Shown here: piece after piece, positions 6,444 through 47,360 of the stretch
Numbering within the stretch: position 1 is the stretch's first letter
Layout: the number at the start of each line of letters is the position of its first letter
Assembly (NCBI GenBank): GCA_050302475.1
Contig: JBNLBF010000008.1
Location: forward strand, 64,121 to 128,120
Length of the DNA: 64,000 nucleotides
From: Paracoccaceae bacterium
Lineage (GTDB): Bacteria; Pseudomonadota; Alphaproteobacteria; Rhodobacterales; Rhodobacteraceae
Direction of reading: 5' to 3'
The notes under the pieces: generated by a model
What the model was told of the DNA's origin: nothing
The model's input: the letters and a program-made list of their open reading frames with translations, nothing else
Databases searched by the model: none
Position numbers and translations under genes: made by a program

Positions 6444-7510
6444 CCCATTCCGATATTCTGATCATCGGCGGCGGGATTGCTGGCGGTTCGCTGGCCGCAA
6501 AAATCGCCCCCCATCGCAGCGTCACGCTGCTGGAGGCAGAGGCCCATGTCGCCTATCACTCCACCGGACGTTCTGCCGCCATGTGGGAACCGTTTTACGG
6601 CCTCGACATTATCCGCCAGCTTTGCCTTGCCAGCGAGGCGGAGCTGATACGCCGTGACGTCCTTAGCCCGCGCGGTGTGCTCTATCTGCAGGAACCGGAT
6701 CAGCCGCGTGACACGTTCAACGAAATCCTCGCCCAGCCGGGTGCGCAGCGCCTTAGCGTGGCGGAGGCACAGGACCTGATGCCCATCCTGCGTGATGATG
6801 TGTTTACCGAGGCGGCTTTTGGCGAAAAAGCCCAAGATATCGACGTCGATAAACTGTTGCAAAGCTTCCTGCGCGACGCCCGCGCCGCCGGGGCAAACCA
6901 GATCACCAACGCCCGCGTCACCGCCATCCGGCGCGATGGGCATTGGATCGTCGAAACCACGGCGGGAAGTTTTACCGCCGATATCATCGTCAACGCCGCC
7001 GGCGCATGGGCGGACCATGTGGCCCGGATGGCGGGGATCAATCCGATTGGCATCCAGCCGCTCCGTCGGTCCATGGCACGTATCCCCGCGCCGGGCGGTC
7101 ACGATGTCAGCACGTGGCCAATGTGCGTCAGCGCGGCGGAGGATTGGTATTCCAAACCCGATGCGGGCAAATTACTCGTTTCTCCGATGGACGAGGGTCC
7201 GGTCGAGCCAATGGACGCCTGGCCCGAGGATATGGTCCTCGCCGAAGGGCTGGCGCGCTACGAGGCCTTCGTGACCGAACCCGTCACCCGCGTTGAACAT
7301 AGCTGGGCCGGGTTGCGCAGCTTCCCGCCTGACCGCACGCCGGTGATTGGCTTTGGTGGCGACGGCTATTTCTGGTGCGCCGGGCAGGGCGGGTACGGGA
7401 TCGAAACCTCTTGTGCGTTATCTGATCTAGGCGCGGCTTTGTTGCGGGACGAACCCCCGACGCTCGACCCCGCCATCGTCGCCGGCCTGTCACCTACACG
7501 GTTCGCATGA
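6440..7510 (+). CDS. FAD-dependent oxidoreductase (DAO family)
   Basis: 356 aa, N-terminal ILIIGGGIAGGSLA dinucleotide-binding motif. Overlaps neighbours by 4 nt (operon). Confidence 0.75.
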   Translation: MTHSDILIIGGGIAGGSLAAKIAPHRSVTLLEAEAHVAYHSTGRSAAMWEPFYGLDIIRQLCLASEAELIRRDVLSPRGVLYLQEPDQPRDTFNEILAQPGAQRLSVAEAQDLMPILRDDVFTEAAFGEKAQDIDVDKLLQSFLRDARAAGANQITNARVTAIRRDGHWIVETTAGSFTADIIVNAAGAWADHVARMAGINPIGIQPLRRSMARIPAPGGHDVSTWPMCVSAAEDWYSKPDAGKLLVSPMDEGPVEPMDAWPEDMVLAEGLARYEAFVTEPVTRVEHSWAGLRSFPPDRTPVIGFGGDGYFWCAGQGGYGIETSCALSDLGAALLRDEPPTLDPAIVAGLSPTRFA

Positions 7511-25853: not shown

Positions 25854-26705
25854 TCAAAACCACTGTCCGGGTTCCATAAAGCCAAGCTCCATCAATTGCT
25901 GGGAGTCCCAATCAAATTTCCCGCTGCCGCCCCAGTGAAAATTCTGTATCGCCTCGGCAGACCCGGGATTATGCATCAACACCTTGGCGACGCGGAACGA
26001 CATCACCGCCATGGTCAGGTTATGGTGCCACTCACAGGATATCGTGTTCAATTCCGGTTCCGACAGGCGCAAATCCTCGCCAATCGTCAGGCCCTTGGTG
26101 ACCTTGAACAGCGCAATCCGGTCGATACGGCGTTTTTCCCACGGGATATGCTCCTCGTACCGCCAGCGCAGGCCGCCGAAAATCTCGGGCTGACGCTCGA
26201 CCATGTCGGGGCCGTCATACCGGTCCATCCCGTAATAACCCGACAGGTCCAGATGCGCCGACCCCAGATCGACGCCCGACCGGTGATCCGGCAGGTTTTC
26301 GGGATAAAGGTCAATGGCGTAACTATAGACGGAGGTCCGGCGCTCTTCCTCCATGAAGGTGAGGGCGTCTTTGATAGACCTTGTCTCGCAGAACGGGAAA
26401 TACAGATATTCGGCGTTGAAACAGTAGTAGATCCAGCACCCCTCAGCCTGAGAGATGACCATGTTGAGGATTTCCAGCGAATCCTCCAGTTCGTTCAGCT
26501 CGGCATAGAAGGTTCGGACATTTTCCAGATCTTCGAACGCGGATTGGCCGACGGCTCCGACCACCAGAATCGTTCCGAAGCCCAGCTTCTGGTGATGGCG
26601 GACGGTGCTGTCGAGCTCCACCTCGTCCTCGGCCAGGATGACCGCGACGGGCGAGGTCAGGTCATGGCTTTGTAGATAGCTTTGCAACTCGGGGTTTGGC
26701 ATCAT
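25854..26705 (-). CDS. hypothetical protein (conserved-looking, no recognisable domain)
   Basis: 283 aa soluble protein. Start set to MMPNPELQ. Confidence 0.4.
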   Translation of the reverse strand: MMPNPELQSYLQSHDLTSPVAVILAEDEVELDSTVRHHQKLGFGTILVVGAVGQSAFEDLENVRTFYAELNELEDSLEILNMVISQAEGCWIYYCFNAEYLYFPFCETRSIKDALTFMEEERRTSVYSYAIDLYPENLPDHRSGVDLGSAHLDLSGYYGMDRYDGPDMVERQPEIFGGLRWRYEEHIPWEKRRIDRIALFKVTKGLTIGEDLRLSEPELNTISCEWHHNLTMAVMSFRVAKVLMHNPGSAEAIQNFHWGGSGKFDWDSQQLMELGFMEPGQWF

Positions 26706-26818
26706 TCTCTCCGTCCCGAAGGCATAGCAAAAGCGCACCGCCAAGGGAAAGCCGAAACCGCACGCATTGCGCAGGTTTTATCAGTGCGGTAAAGGGGCGG
26801 GAATCCAGAAGGTAAAAA

Positions 26819-28129
26819 ATGTCCGACCCCAAGAAACTATTTGTCAAAACCTATGGCTGCCAGATGAACGTTTACGACAGTGAACGTATGGCCGAAGCCA
26901 TGGGATCGGACGGGTATGTGGAAACGGACAGCCCCGATGATGCGGACATGATCCTGCTGAACACCTGCCATATCCGCGAGAAGGCGGCGGAAAAGGTCTA
27001 TTCCGAACTTGGTCGGTATCGGAAACTGAAAGAAGGCAAGCCCGACCTGAAGATCGGCGTCGCCGGGTGTGTCGCGCAGGCCGAGGGCGAGGAGATCATG
27101 CGCCGCCAGCCGTTGGTCGATCTGGTGGTTGGCCCGCAATCCTATCACCGCCTGCCGGAAATGGCGGCGAAGGCCGGGCATGGCGTCAAGCAGATCGACA
27201 CGGAATTTCCCGAAGAAGACAAGTTCGACCATCTGCCCCGCGGCCCAAAGGCCCGGCGCGCGCCTGCCGCGTTTCTGACCGTGCAGGAAGGCTGCGATAA
27301 ATTCTGCGCCTTCTGCGTCGTGCCTTATACGCGGGGGGCCGAGGTCTCCCGCCCCGCCGAACGCCTGATGGCCGAAGCCCGCGATCTGGTGGAACGCGGC
27401 GTGGTTGAGGTCACGTTGCTGGGGCAGAACGTCAACGCTTATCATGGACCCGAGGGCTGGACGCTGGCGAAACTGATCCGCGAGATGGCGAAAATCGACG
27501 GGCTGGAACGTATCCGCTTTACGACATCCCACCCCAATGACATGGATGATGACCTGATCGCCGCACATGGCGAGGTGGAGAAACTGATGCCTTATCTGCA
27601 CCTGCCGGTGCAATCGGGATCGGACAAGGTGCTGAAGGCGATGAATCGCAAACATACGGCGGAGCACTATCTGCGTCTGCTGGAACGCATTCGCGAGGCA
27701 CGCCCGGATATCGCCCTTTCCGGCGATTTCATCGTTGGCTTCCCGGGCGAGGACGAAGCGGATTTCGAAGACACGCTCGCGCTCTGTCGCGAGGTGAAAT
27801 ATGCGCAGGCTTATTCGTTCAAATACTCCGCCCGTCCCGGCACGCCGGCGGCGGATCGTGCCCATGTGGACGAGAGTGTGAAAGCGGACCGGCTGGCCCG
27901 GTTGCAGGAACTGCTGAACCAGCACCAGTATGACTTCCAGGCATCCATGGTGGGGAAAACCCTGCCCGTTTTGCTGGAAAAACCGGGGCGCGAGGCCGGA
28001 CAGATAGTAGGCAAATCACCCTATCTTCAGGCGGTTCACGTGGATGCCGACCAGGCAGATGTCGGGAAAATCGTCCAGGCGGAGATCATCAAATCACAGA
28101 AAAACTCACTATCTGGTGTGGTCGTCTGA
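26819..28129 (+). CDS. miaB: tRNA-2-methylthio-N6-dimethylallyladenosine synthase MiaB
   Basis: 436 aa. UPF0004 N-domain (KTYGCQMN), radical-SAM [15 protein letters not shown] domain. Confidence 0.95.
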
Positions 28130-28169
28130 GGGCCCAATCACAAGTTATAGTGCTACTGTGTCGTTTGAG

Positions 28170-28219
28170 TCACATAAACAAATTCTTCTAACTTATTAGA
28201 TTCACATAAGAAATTTTTC
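28170..28219 (+). promoter_or_regulatory. AT-rich direct repeats (candidate operator/promoter) upstream of the small-ORF/OmpA-like/lipoprotein cluster
   Basis: TCACATAAACAAATTCTTC at 28170-28188 and TCACATAAGAAATTTTTC at 28202-28219, in an unusually low-GC intergenic region. Confidence 0.35.
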
Positions 28220-28271
28220 TGCTACCTTTTACACATGCCGGCGTTAGATCGGCGACAAAGAGGCAGAAACA

Positions 28272-28421
28272 ATGTTCAGAGCAATCATGATCGCCCTAGT
28301 GGCGGGCACTATTCAGTCTATGGCGCCATATTTTGAGGAACCGGTAGATGCCGGAACTCTGTATGCGCTGTTGGCGACAGAAACCTCTGAGAACCAGTTA
28401 TGGATGAACCAGTATGAGTAA
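28272..28421 (+). CDS. putative 49-aa leader-like small protein (not in ORF track)
   Basis: MFRAIMIALVAGTIQSMAPYFEEPVDAGTLYALLATETSENQLWMNQYE. Stop overlaps the ATG of the downstream OmpA-family gene (ATGAGTAA). Confidence 0.3.
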   Translation: MFRAIMIALVAGTIQSMAPYFEEPVDAGTLYALLATETSENQLWMNQYE

Positions 28422-28959
28422 GGCAGCATTTGTTGTCCTTGCACTCGGCATGGCCATTTTGGCCTTGCCGGGGCAAAGCAAGGCCGGAAACTCTGACAGC
28501 TACCCCGCCGCGATTTGGATTGATCCCGACGGGTGTGAACATTGGGTCTTGGACCTCGGGGTTGAGGGGATGATGTCCCCGCATCTCGACCGCGAAGGTA
28601 GACCGGTCTGCGGTCGTAATCCGAATATCTGCATGGAATTTCCCTCGGACATCATGTTCGAGACCGCAAAATGGAACCTGTCCAACGAGATGGTCGACCG
28701 CTTGACGGTCTTCTTCAGCGATTCCATGGCTGATGGCATTCACTATTTCACCATCGCTGGACATACCGACAACGTCGGTGACGAATTCTACAACTACGAT
28801 CTGGGACGCAAACGCGCGCAATCTGTCGCGGCCATTGCCAACCAGATCGGGGCAATCTCGCGTACTGACACGTATGGCGAGATGCAACCGATCGCATCAA
28901 ACGACACTCCCGACGGTCGCGCCCGCAACCGCCGTGTCGAAATCTTTTGTAGCCGGTGA
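28414..28959 (+). CDS. OmpA-family protein with novel N-terminal two-Cys domain
   Basis: Signal peptide. C-terminal OmpA_C peptidoglycan-binding motifs (AGHTDNVGD..YN..LG.KRAQSV...NRRVEI). N-terminal ~40 aa domain paralogous to the next ORF. Confidence 0.8.
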   Translation: MSKAAFVVLALGMAILALPGQSKAGNSDSYPAAIWIDPDGCEHWVLDLGVEGMMSPHLDREGRPVCGRNPNICMEFPSDIMFETAKWNLSNEMVDRLTVFFSDSMADGIHYFTIAGHTDNVGDEFYNYDLGRKRAQSVAAIANQIGAISRTDTYGEMQPIASNDTPDGRARNRRVEIFCSR

Positions 28960-28967
28960 GGAGAGTG

Positions 28968-29270
28968 ATGATGAAACTGTTGAGGATCTCCACCGCCCTT
29001 CTGGCCATGACCGCGCTCGGTGCATGTGACTTTGCCATCAACCGGGATACCGGGTCCGACGCCGGTGACTTGTCCGGCATGACCGCCGGCATCTGGGTTG
29101 ACCGCAACGGTTGCGATCACTGGATTCTGGATGACGGGTTCGAGGGCTACATGTCCCCGCGCCTCGACCATGACGGAAAACCGATTTGCCGCGAAGGCGC
29201 GGTGCCCTGGTCTACGGTCTTCTTCGAAGATCATGTTTTCGGAAACCCCGGAAAGAGAGACAATAATTAA
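28968..29270 (+). CDS. small lipoprotein carrying the same two-Cys domain
   Basis: Lipobox LAMTALGAC. AGIWVDRNGCDHWILDDGFEGYMSPRLDHDGKPIC aligns with AAIWIDPDGCEHWVLDLGVEGMMSPHLDREGRPVC of the upstream ORF. GAGGAGA SD. Confidence 0.55.
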   Translation: MMKLLRISTALLAMTALGACDFAINRDTGSDAGDLSGMTAGIWVDRNGCDHWILDDGFEGYMSPRLDHDGKPICREGAVPWSTVFFEDHVFGNPGKRDNN

Positions 29271-29271
29271 G

Positions 29272-29361
29272 GAATTCGCGTAAATCGCGAATACATACCG
29301 CCGGTCCCGCTGAATTGACGTGCCCCCCCAAATCGAGACAATTCAGCAACGGGACCGGCGG
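29272..29361 (+). other. two stem-loops after the lipoprotein gene (7-bp palindrome then ~20-bp-stem hairpin)
   Basis: ATTCGCG-ttaaat-CGCGAAT at 29273-29292. CCGCCGGTCCCGCTGAATTG (29299-29318) pairs with CAATTCAGCAACGGGACCGGCGG (29339-29361). No U-tract follows. Confidence 0.45.
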
Positions 29362-29463
29362 AATTTCATGACAATTTGAAGATCGCTCGTTTTTCCCCTT
29401 GCCCGCGAGTCCGGCATTTGGCAGCATTAAGCTGCAAACCGAAATTCAAACGGACGGACCCCA

Positions 29464-30477
29464 TTGGTATCAGACATATCTGACGCGAGCTCTCTCGCGG
29501 AGACCAGCGAAACCCTCATCGAGTTTCCCGACAATCGGCTTCTTATTGACCTTTGCGGACAGCTCGATTCCAACCTCTCGAAAATTGAAATGGGCACGGG
29601 GGCGGCGATACATCATCGTGGCAACCAGTTGCTGATCAGTGGCGAGGCGCATGAGAAGAAGCACGCGGAAACCGCGCTCAGGTCCATGTATGCCCGGCTT
29701 GAACAGGGCCGCGCGCTGGAACAGGGCGATGTGGACGCCGCGATCCGGATGCCGAAGGAAGTGTTCGACGAACCCGGCGCCAATGACCAGATCGAGATGT
29801 TCAAGGGCGACAAGCTGGAGTTTCGGACCCGCAAGAAAATCGTCGAACCGCGAACCAAATCGCAGATTGCTTATGTTAAATCGCTGTTCTCGAATGAACT
29901 GGTCTTTGGCCTTGGTCCGGCGGGAACGGGAAAAACCTATCTGGCCGTGGCGGCGGCAGTGTCGAGCTATCTCGACGGGAATGTGGATCGGATCATTCTG
30001 GCCCGCCCGGCGGTGGAAGCCGGTGAGCGTCTGGGCTTTCTGCCCGGCGATATGAAGGAAAAGGTCGATCCCTACATGCAGCCGCTTTACGACGCGCTGA
30101 ATGATTTCTTGCCCGGCAAGCAGGTCACCAAGATGATCGAGGAACGCACTATCGAAATCGCCCCGCTGGCTTTCATGCGCGGGCGGACGCTGGCAAATGC
30201 CTATGTCGTGCTGGATGAGGCGCAGAATGCGACAACCATGCAGATGAAAATGTTCCTGACCCGGCTGGGCGAAAATTCCCGCATGGCGATCAACGGTGAC
30301 ATGTCTCAGGTCGATTTGCCAAAAGGCATGATGTCCGGCCTGATCGAGGCGGAGCGTGTGTTGCGTAAGGTCCCCGGCATCGGGTTCACCTATTTCACGG
30401 CCGAGGACGTCGTGCGTCACCCGATGGTCGCAAAGATCATCAGAGCATACGACGCAGCCCACAAGAACGATGTCTGA
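29464..30477 (+). CDS. ybeZ: PhoH-like ATPase (YbeZ)
   Basis: 337 aa. Walker A GPAGTGKT, PhoH family. Conserved position upstream of ybeY. Confidence 0.9.
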   Translation: MVSDISDASSLAETSETLIEFPDNRLLIDLCGQLDSNLSKIEMGTGAAIHHRGNQLLISGEAHEKKHAETALRSMYARLEQGRALEQGDVDAAIRMPKEVFDEPGANDQIEMFKGDKLEFRTRKKIVEPRTKSQIAYVKSLFSNELVFGLGPAGTGKTYLAVAAAVSSYLDGNVDRIILARPAVEAGERLGFLPGDMKEKVDPYMQPLYDALNDFLPGKQVTKMIEERTIEIAPLAFMRGRTLANAYVVLDEAQNATTMQMKMFLTRLGENSRMAINGDMSQVDLPKGMMSGLIEAERVLRKVPGIGFTYFTAEDVVRHPMVAKIIRAYDAAHKNDV

Positions 30478-47290: not shown

Positions 47291-47360
47291 TGAGTAGCTC
47301 ATTAGGTAGAGCAACAGACTTCTAATCTGTGGGTAGCGGGTTCGACTCCCGCCTCAACTG
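47288..47360 (+). tRNA. tRNA-Arg(TCT)-like gene with defective 5' acceptor strand (possible truncated or pseudo-tRNA)
   Basis: Perfect D-arm GCTCATTAGGTAGAGC. Anticodon stem-loop ACAGA-CTTCTAA-TCTGT (anticodon TCT at 47321-47323). T-arm GCGGGTTCGACTCCCGC. Acceptor 3' strand CTCAACT. Nucleotides 1-3 (CCA) cannot pair with 70-72. Confidence 0.4.

Follow-up and report, generated by a model that had tools for sequence, protein, structure and literature searches.

A conserved gene pair between miaB and phoH in Roseobacter-group bacteria encodes an OmpA-type protein and a lipoprotein sharing a two-cysteine domain

The miaB-phoH junction and its genes

The stretch of DNA considered here spans 64,000 nucleotides (nt) of a Paracoccaceae bacterium (order Rhodobacterales; GenBank assembly GCA_050302475.1, contig JBNLBF010000008.1, positions 64,121 to 128,120 of the forward strand) and is termed "the window", at its full length. 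Between miaB and phoH, the window harbors two genes coding for exported proteins. The first gene ("A") encodes a protein of the OmpA type with a peptidoglycan-binding domain, and the second ("L") a small lipoprotein. Each protein possesses one copy of the same short domain with two invariant cysteines (the "two-Cys domain"). A-L is an old operon of marine Rhodobacterales of the Roseobacter group, inherited vertically and located between miaB and the phoH-ybeY-corC-lnt cluster. Its two envelope genes are conserved widely and uncharacterised, and they are a variation on the OmpA_C/lipoprotein theme. To judge from the sequences of the two proteins and the order of their genes, A and L are likely to cooperate in the envelope.

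A preliminary description, made from the nucleotide sequence only, had reported in this interval three open reading frames (ORFs), a two-Cys motif common to two of their products, an AT-rich spacer with direct repeats and a 3' hairpin. All of these are present (Table 1). The third ORF is a short frame of 49 amino acids (aa) preceding A. Downstream of phoH, the genes ybeY (TIGR00043), corC and lnt follow in this order.

The start of the L gene deserves a correction. The listed ORF begins at a GTG codon (28956), but a GAGGAG ribosome-binding site lies ahead of the ATG codons at 28968 and 28971, and a public gene call with 100% identity (P0001, 99 aa) begins at 28971. The true start of L is almost certainly one of these two ATG codons. 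With either of them, A and L are separated by 8-11 nt and do not overlap.

Table 1. Positions of the genes, domains and candidate regulatory elements at the miaB-phoH junction, numbered from the first nucleotide of the window.
Feature	Position	Strand	Description
miaB	26819-28129	+	Pfam UPF0004, Radical_SAM and TRAM
Candidate AT-rich promoter/operator region of A-L	28130-28271	+	142 nt; GC 0.394 (0.2 percentile of the window)
Palindrome	28137-28152	+	ATCACAAGTTATAGTG; in the upstream spacer
Two repeat boxes	28164-28184, 28196-28216	+	TCACATAA; 21-nt direct repeat, 76% identical
49-aa ORF	28272-28421	+	From the ORF map
OmpA-type gene (A)	28414-28959	+	181 aa
Two-Cys domain, A class	28498-28614	+	SYPAAIWIDPDGCEHWVLDLGVEGMMSPHLDREGRPVCG
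C73 of A	28630-28632		Second Cys pair
C179 of A	28948-28950		Second Cys pair
Lipoprotein gene (L)	28968-29270	+	~99-100 aa; listed ORF 28956-29270
Two-Cys domain, L class	29076-29192	+	GMTAGIWVDRNGCDHWILDDGFEGYMSPRLDHDGKPICR
Long 3' stem-loop of the operon	29298-29364	+	Stem ~20 bp, loop ~23 nt; no clear U-tract
Candidate promoter of phoH-ybeY-corC-lnt	29393-29430	+	CCCTTGCCCGCGAGTCCGGCATTTGGCAGCAT
phoH	29464-30477	+	PhoH, E 1.2e-90

The OmpA-type protein A

Protein A starts with a Sec signal peptide of the signal-peptidase-I type, cleaved at about SKA-G (residues 24/25), and has no lipobox Cys. The two-Cys domain (residues ~29-67) is followed directly by a complete OmpA_C-like peptidoglycan-binding domain (residues ~68-178). 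The Pfam OmpA family (PF00691) includes A, with a match of residues 110-173 at 37.8 bits (cut-off 27.2 bits, E 2.4e-9). NCBIfam models of the OmpA_C type span residues 68-178, namely YiaD (4.1e-24), YfiB (2.2e-19) and PA1041 (1.6e-18), and the relatives found in the PDB (7rjj, YfiB, YiaD and MotB) cover residues 76-178. A predicted peptidoglycan-contact pattern, TD...N..L...RA..V, with the Asp of its TD part and the Arg of its N..L...RA..V part, is read in the translation (GHTDNVGDEFYNYDLGRKRAQSVAAIA) and is kept in the homologues.

The C-terminal 110 residues of A, as a complete OmpA_C domain, liken the protein to Pal, YiaD, YfiB and PA1041. A does not, however, belong to any of these families, all of its scores lying far under the respective equivalog cut-offs, with 46 vs 125 bits for Pal (TIGR02802), 85 vs 175 bits for YiaD and 70 vs 128 bits for YfiB. 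It differs from these proteins also by the absence of a lipobox and by its gene context, which is miaB/phoH instead of tol-pal or yfiBNR.

Homologues of A number 1092, and the N-terminal motif occurs in all of them among the matches listed. Within the latter, 120 out of 120 possess at least four cysteines, one of them at the C-terminus; therefore, A has a second conserved Cys pair. This pair, C73 and C179, flanks the OmpA_C domain. The first residue sits in an NIC motif at the domain start and the second in an EI.C motif at the C-terminus, the pair being missing from variants that end in ...EITVLD. These two residues may be joined by a further disulfide in the periplasm, which would close the OmpA_C domain. 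The two invariant cysteines of the preliminary description are indeed 100% conserved within the domain, but the count for A as a whole is four conserved cysteines and not two.

The lipoprotein L

L possesses a signal peptide ending in a predicted lipobox, LGA-C, the Cys of which is invariant among 24 homologues, with L or V at position -3. It agrees with the bacterial lipobox pattern [LVI][ASTG][GA]C with its invariant Cys, and L is accordingly predicted to be lipidated. The lipobox is followed by a flexible linker of ~20 residues with a conserved D.G.D...L pattern. The two-Cys domain, of the L class, comes next, and the protein ends in a short tail that is likewise conserved (P[WY]STV.FE). 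In the AlphaFold2 model of L, the domain is predicted at a local confidence (pLDDT, predicted local distance difference test) of ~84-95 as a four-strand β-meander with tight D.xG turns.

Among described lipoproteins of the same order, DalA (RSP_1200) of Rhodobacter sphaeroides is an outer-membrane lipoprotein of ~18 kDa associated with the divisome, whose gene lies between L,D-transpeptidase genes (PMC10470522). An "OmpA family protein", RSP_1033, co-precipitates with DalA (PMC10470522). A search by locus tag around RSP_1033 for published R. sphaeroides data on A gave nothing usable. DalA resembles L as a small lipoprotein, previously uncharacterised and largely restricted to Rhodobacterales; it is associated with peptidoglycan. 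DalA differs from L by its mass of ~18 kDa and by a gene that is not between miaB and phoH, the two proteins being compared by description. The identification of L with DalA was rejected on size and gene context, without sequence comparison.

The two-Cys domain

The domain comprises ~35-40 residues, and its two copies in the window, those of A and L, are 53% identical. The shared motif goes far beyond what chance would produce. A set of 170 unique domains (111 A-form and 59 L-form) displays 100% conservation, in either form, of the W, the G-C pair, the last Cys and three Gly; the D, H-W, D and E-G positions are nearly as constant. The two forms separate into classes. A-class domains display an E after GC, HWV[ML]D and P-H, whereas L-class domains display a D after GC, HWI[IV]D and P-R, so that the class-discriminating positions are E/D after GC, V/I, M/I and H/R. 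Nearest-neighbour assignment is consistent with the class for 106 of the 111 A domains and 52 of the 59 L domains.

The preliminary description could not place this domain in any named family. This holds as far as curated families are concerned, since the two-Cys domain of the window proteins has no match above threshold in Pfam or NCBIfam, but a relative stands close to the threshold. DUF6440 (PF20037) matches L of the window with 17.6-17.8 bits (E 0.003), against a gathering score of 26.5, and is not reported for the whole A protein. Matches below threshold are found in 14 of 24 L homologues (E<1), and further DUF6440 matches in 17 of 150 cluster representatives and in 20 of 53 isolated domains, with nothing else consistent. 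The best one belongs to a family member, P0142 (E 7.8e-6; 26.0 bits, vs the gathering score of 26.5), which also carries a precomputed PF20037.5 annotation. Furthermore, a Foldseek search of the L model against BFVD returns phage DUF6440 proteins at ranks 1, 2, 4, 5 and 8, with a best E of 1.1e-3 and a probability of 1.0, and PHROG families 11767 and 8801, both of unknown function, match with values up to 8.6e-6. The Foldseek and PHROG results probably overlap with the Pfam match as evidence and do not add independent support.

The two-Cys domain is likely an exported, proteobacterial, Cys-bearing branch of DUF6440. Besides the top-ranking BFVD structures, the likeness lies in the small size of the proteins and in a match covering the C-terminal ~37 of the 53 profile positions. 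The differences are that the window proteins score below the gathering value and that their branch is proteobacterial and exported, with two invariant Cys, a conserved H-W, OmpA_C fusions and tandem copies. No function of DUF6440 is described in the literature searched, where a mention was found in a genome note only. As DUF6440 has itself no known function, this placement yields no mechanism.

Distribution and synteny

A relative of L is encoded in at least 594 species, as counted by a scan of one genome per species. Synteny was analyzed in the best 80 loci of these, one per species, which span ~40 genera, among them Roseovarius, Shimia, Sulfitobacter, Phaeobacter, Thalassobius, Planktomarina, Yoonia, Tateyamaria and Litoreibacter. 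The A gene is directly upstream of L in 80/80 loci, phoH is downstream in 78/80, and miaB is upstream in every one of the 80 that has enough flank. Five homologues at 80, 56, 48, 48 and 43% identity all display the order miaB, A, L, phoH, ybeY, corC, lnt, metK.

In Escherichia coli, miaB directly adjoins ybeZ (phoH). The preliminary description, for which the two genes are normally adjacent, had taken the 1.3-kb interval as an acquired module inserted at the miaB-phoH junction, of which the repeats and the hairpin on either side of the genes would be traces; the upstream spacer is, moreover, the most AT-rich segment of its size class. As a recent event, this acquisition is refuted, because A and L are found at this position throughout the Roseobacter group and their base composition is ordinary, an outcome that the description itself had named as a refutation. 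The G+C content of A and L together is 0.565, vs 0.577 for the window (30th percentile), and that of third codon positions (GC3) is 0.67 for A and 0.71 for L, vs 0.66-0.72 for the neighbouring genes. The 142-nt spacer behind miaB is the only AT-rich part. There is no integrase, transposase or other mobility gene at the site, no tRNA, and no direct repeat flanking the junction. The hairpin occurs just once in the window, where a terminator would be expected. Any insertion would date back to the base of the group, and the locus does not qualify as a mobile or recently acquired island.

Pairing of A and L in other contexts

Searched with a profile, 1.84 billion cluster representatives yielded 263 clusters with the domain. 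The profile was built from the lipoprotein alignment and fragments of the window; a domain-only profile was set aside, HMMER weighting having drawn OmpA columns into it. The architectures found are single-domain lipoproteins, proteins with a signal peptide, the domain and OmpA_C, and proteins with two or three copies of the domain, with or without OmpA_C. Natural fusions of the two classes also exist. P0142 harbors a lipobox followed by an L and an A domain, and P0143 a lipobox followed by an L domain, an A domain and OmpA_C.

Wherever the context of an unusual form could be retrieved, a second gene with the domain is adjacent to it. At locus L094 (6547-8295), a gene for an 80-aa lipoprotein reaches into the start of the next one, which codes for an OmpA protein with three copies of the domain, in a neighbourhood with DUF3179, LysE, PG_binding_1 and MlaC. 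Two of these neighbours, PG_binding_1 and MlaC, likewise have envelope functions. L095 associates miaB, a gene for a two-copy OmpA form and L, phoH being absent. L096 displays two adjoining genes of the type lipobox, domain, OmpA, of which one is A-like and the other L-like. At L097/L098, a 76-aa lipoprotein and a domain-OmpA gene stand beside SDR genes, and at L099 a 72-aa lipoprotein is paired with a lipoprotein carrying two copies of the domain, OmpA_C being absent. Four of these contexts (L094, L096, L097/L098 and L099) are unrelated to miaB-phoH.

The OmpA-fused and lipoprotein forms, for which co-occurrence elsewhere had been put forward as a check, are neighbours in the whole synteny set and in the four other contexts. 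This persistent pairing of two paralogue classes and the Rosetta-stone fusions are the reasons for which A and L bear the signature of interacting partners.

A possible membrane-to-peptidoglycan connector

From these arrangements, it may be proposed that the domain of L and that of A associate with one another in the periplasm. L, anchored by its lipid and extended by its linker of ~20 residues, would thereby be coupled non-covalently to A, itself bound to peptidoglycan. The outcome would be a two-part membrane-to-cell-wall connector, in which two chains do the job of the one-chain OmpA_C lipoproteins of the Pal/YiaD type, while the invariant Cys pair of each domain would form a stabilising periplasmic disulfide. 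Together, A and L would supply the lipid anchor and the peptidoglycan binding that characterize Pal and YiaD, and the fusion P0143 does have the one-chain architecture. The difference from Pal, YiaD, YfiB and PA1041 is that anchor and wall binding belong to separate chains, and any link between these would be through a domain which is missing from those families. We infer A-L binding, the disulfide and the physiological role alike, and hold the connector via paired domains as the best of the readings considered, though a tentative one, with somewhat less than an even chance of being right. The preliminary description had already suggested an envelope-anchored pair, with its copies binding each other or the same ligand. 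Of this idea, the two exported proteins with their OmpA_C domain and lipobox are confirmed, and the pairing and fusions support a joint action, although short of proof.

Several observations weigh against the connector. The AlphaFold2 model of the natural L-A fusion is of low confidence (pLDDT 65; predicted template modelling score, pTM, 0.40) and uninformative on the packing of the two domains. The residue following the lipid Cys of L varies (D, S, G, T, E or V) and does not fix the membrane in which L resides. Conservation of neighbourhood within one bacterial family is partly due to shared ancestry. Finally, soluble proteins with tandem domains, P0145 and P0146, have neither lipobox nor OmpA_C, and the L099 pair has no OmpA_C in either partner. 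For these three cases, a ligand-binding repeat is an explanation as good as a tether, or better.

Such a repeat would be used in the manner of LysM, SPOR or SH3b for binding a component of the wall or the periplasm, or else a metal via the D, E and H residues. A and L would then bind the same ligand independently, extra copies raising the avidity. The variable number of domains per chain (one to three), with or without lipobox and with or without OmpA_C, is in line with it, as are the conserved acidic, His and Trp positions (W.D..GC.HW..D.G.EG), which resemble a binding surface, and the relatives in phages of Gram-positive hosts, which are small proteins with an N-terminal helix in the structural alignment. 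This alternative, the main rival of the connector, is nevertheless rather unlikely: it leaves unexplained the presence of two paralogue classes side by side in every sampled context, and no similarity of the domain to a known wall- or metal-binding module is seen in Pfam, NCBIfam or the PDB.

A further alternative takes the domains as single blades of a PQQ-like or BamB-like propeller. A, L and their two- and three-copy variants would form a hetero-oligomeric ring with several lipid anchors and OmpA_C domains. It originates from a phmmer search of the PDB, in which the A domain of the window aligns, residue for residue, with the 40-residue blade of the designer propellers Cake and Scone and of their natural template 3hxj (I.PDG.E.W....G.....SP....G....G.N). 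Cake derives from 3hxj (bioRxiv 10.1101/2021.04.12.439409), and since both Cake and Scone do, these matches represent one source. Compared with the Cake blade, 53 domains of the family reach a median z of 5.2, vs -0.19 for the reversed blade. The likeness extends to the 40-residue period, the pattern [IV].PDG.E.W....G.....SP....G....G and the predicted four-strand meander of L with its tight D.xG turns, and the number of such units per chain varies.

However, the phmmer E-values, whose totals sum identical or homologous repeats, were downgraded from evidence of homology to a lead. The single-blade match amounts to only ~7.7 bits (independent E ~55), which is not significant. The profiles fail to connect, with no match of the family profile in the PDB and no match of a Pfam PQQ-type family at E up to 10, and the domain is not a member of the PQQ-like propeller repeats. 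Chains carry one to three copies, as compared with six to nine blades, and AlphaFold2 gives the domain on its own a confident fold in monomeric form. A propeller is, on balance, quite improbable. If true, it would be a natural propeller made of single-blade subunits, bolting a membrane to peptidoglycan at several points, with the phage DUF6440 proteins as related blades.

The connector proposed above would bear on a general question of envelope architecture. To our knowledge, Alphaproteobacteria have no Lpp homologue, and the way in which their outer membrane is fastened to the wall is a matter of current research. The Roseobacter group, for its part, ranks with the most abundant heterotrophs of the sea. 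A gene pair retained at a single locus in 594 or more species, joining a lipid anchor and a peptidoglycan binder by way of a shared domain, is a candidate for an extra envelope connector. It would also be a first point of entry to the function of DUF6440, which is otherwise known mostly from phages. Were A-L merely a redundant envelope pair, the finding would have local annotation value.

Upstream spacer, 3' hairpin and phoH promoter

The spacer and the hairpin, which had been read as the context of an acquisition, are read here as the promoter region of the operon itself and a stem-loop in terminator position, and not as remnants of mobility. The spacer and its repeats are conserved with the nearest relative (L001) and not with more distant loci. 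Other genera possess ~140-150 nt before the A start a palindrome, CCACAATATCTGGTGG, followed after 8-10 nt by CTTCACA, often with ...AAACTTG. CTTCACA is found in 38 of 77 loci, and the upstream element in roughly half of the genera. By their sequence and position, the palindrome and the two boxes of the window look like a local, diverged version of this element. A candidate promoter/operator of A-L is placed near the CCACAATAT...CTTCACA motif, which implies a 5' untranslated region of ~130 nt.

Known regulatory patterns were also searched. Those of CtrA, EcfG, RpoH and sigma-70 are not enriched upstream of the A-L operon, and a scan for sigma-70 promoters and terminators yields counts no higher than in shuffled sequences. 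The CenR motif, TGA-N8-TGA (PMC9275681), has no obvious fit to the palindrome, as judged by eye. A known RNA element in the spacers was likewise discarded, Rfam at gathering thresholds having matched only a tRNA elsewhere in the window.

The 3' hairpin has a predicted free energy of -49.6 kcal/mol and a z of -5.3. It was ruled out as a REP-like repeated hairpin, given its single copy. In L001, a hairpin with a different stem sequence occupies the same place (z -4.15), while canonical terminators with a GC stem and a U-tract are found at this position in L006 and L008. The hairpin is a candidate for a terminator or a structure stabilising the 3' end, as it sits where either would be. Its loop (29318-29340) holds GTGCCCCCC(C), which is also present in L001 (~6872-6890) despite the differing stems.

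Beyond the hairpin, 41 of 78 loci (L014-L092) display a motif GCTTGC-N15-TTGGCACCAT at a distance of ~75 nt upstream of phoH. A stricter version of the pattern is found in 30 of the 78, vs 0.2 expected from shuffles, and the promoter-like motif is kept in 6/6 aligned loci. It is likely, from this recurrence, the own promoter of the phoH operon, marking the end of the A-L unit; A-L would therefore be a separate transcription unit. The spacing CTTG...CCAT recalls promoters of the sigma-32 type, and ybeZYX of E. coli are heat-shock genes.

The 49-aa ORF

The short ORF preceding A had been described as leader-like, its stop overlapping the start of the next gene. The overlap is present, the TAA stop falling within codons 2-3 of the A gene (ATGAGTAAG), but the ORF does not occur beyond one genus, being limited to the species of the window (L009-L012) and to Rhodobacteraceae bacterium NBU2976 (L001/L013). 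It is missing from the other 79 of 80 species loci, in some of which the spacer is too short to hold it (135 nt in L002, for example). It has no family match in Pfam, NCBIfam or PHROG.

The N-terminus of the ORF (MFRAIMIALVAGTIQSMAP) resembles a signal peptide and is collinear with the N-terminus of the A form (BLASTP E 0.007). Its observed profile score is reached by 3/1000 and 0/1000 shuffles. As shuffling destroys hydrophobic runs, this result shows a resemblance to signal peptides and not a proven duplication. The ORF could, on this resemblance, be a decayed partial duplication of the 5' end of the A gene. Its start lies 142 nt from the real A start, out of frame with it.

A functional leader peptide controlling the translation of A by coupling has been considered as well. 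The ORF has a good Shine-Dalgarno sequence, AGAGG, 9 nt before its ATG, vs a weak one for A, and is intact and of equal length in the two species. On the other side, beyond its restricted occurrence and its likeness to a decayed A signal peptide, the ORF is conserved in no more than its first 17-19 residues, the remaining ~30 C-terminal residues varying freely. That both species have the stop at the same place is imposed by the M-[SA]-K with which A begins and which is itself conserved, and the GC3 of the ORF is 0.58, vs 0.66-0.72 for the neighbouring genes. Such a leader is thus unlikely, and the ORF is probably a lineage-specific relic or a leader of doubtful function, not a conserved gene.

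Other features of the window

On the reverse strand, an ORF of ~285-296 aa (25854-26744) is divergent from miaB. It has no Pfam match on record and no NCBIfam match, and represents a conserved gene of unknown function beside the cluster, with a counterpart of 282-290 aa in every related locus examined. Further away, a tRNA gene (47291-47356, + strand) is the sole Rfam match at the gathering threshold within the whole window.

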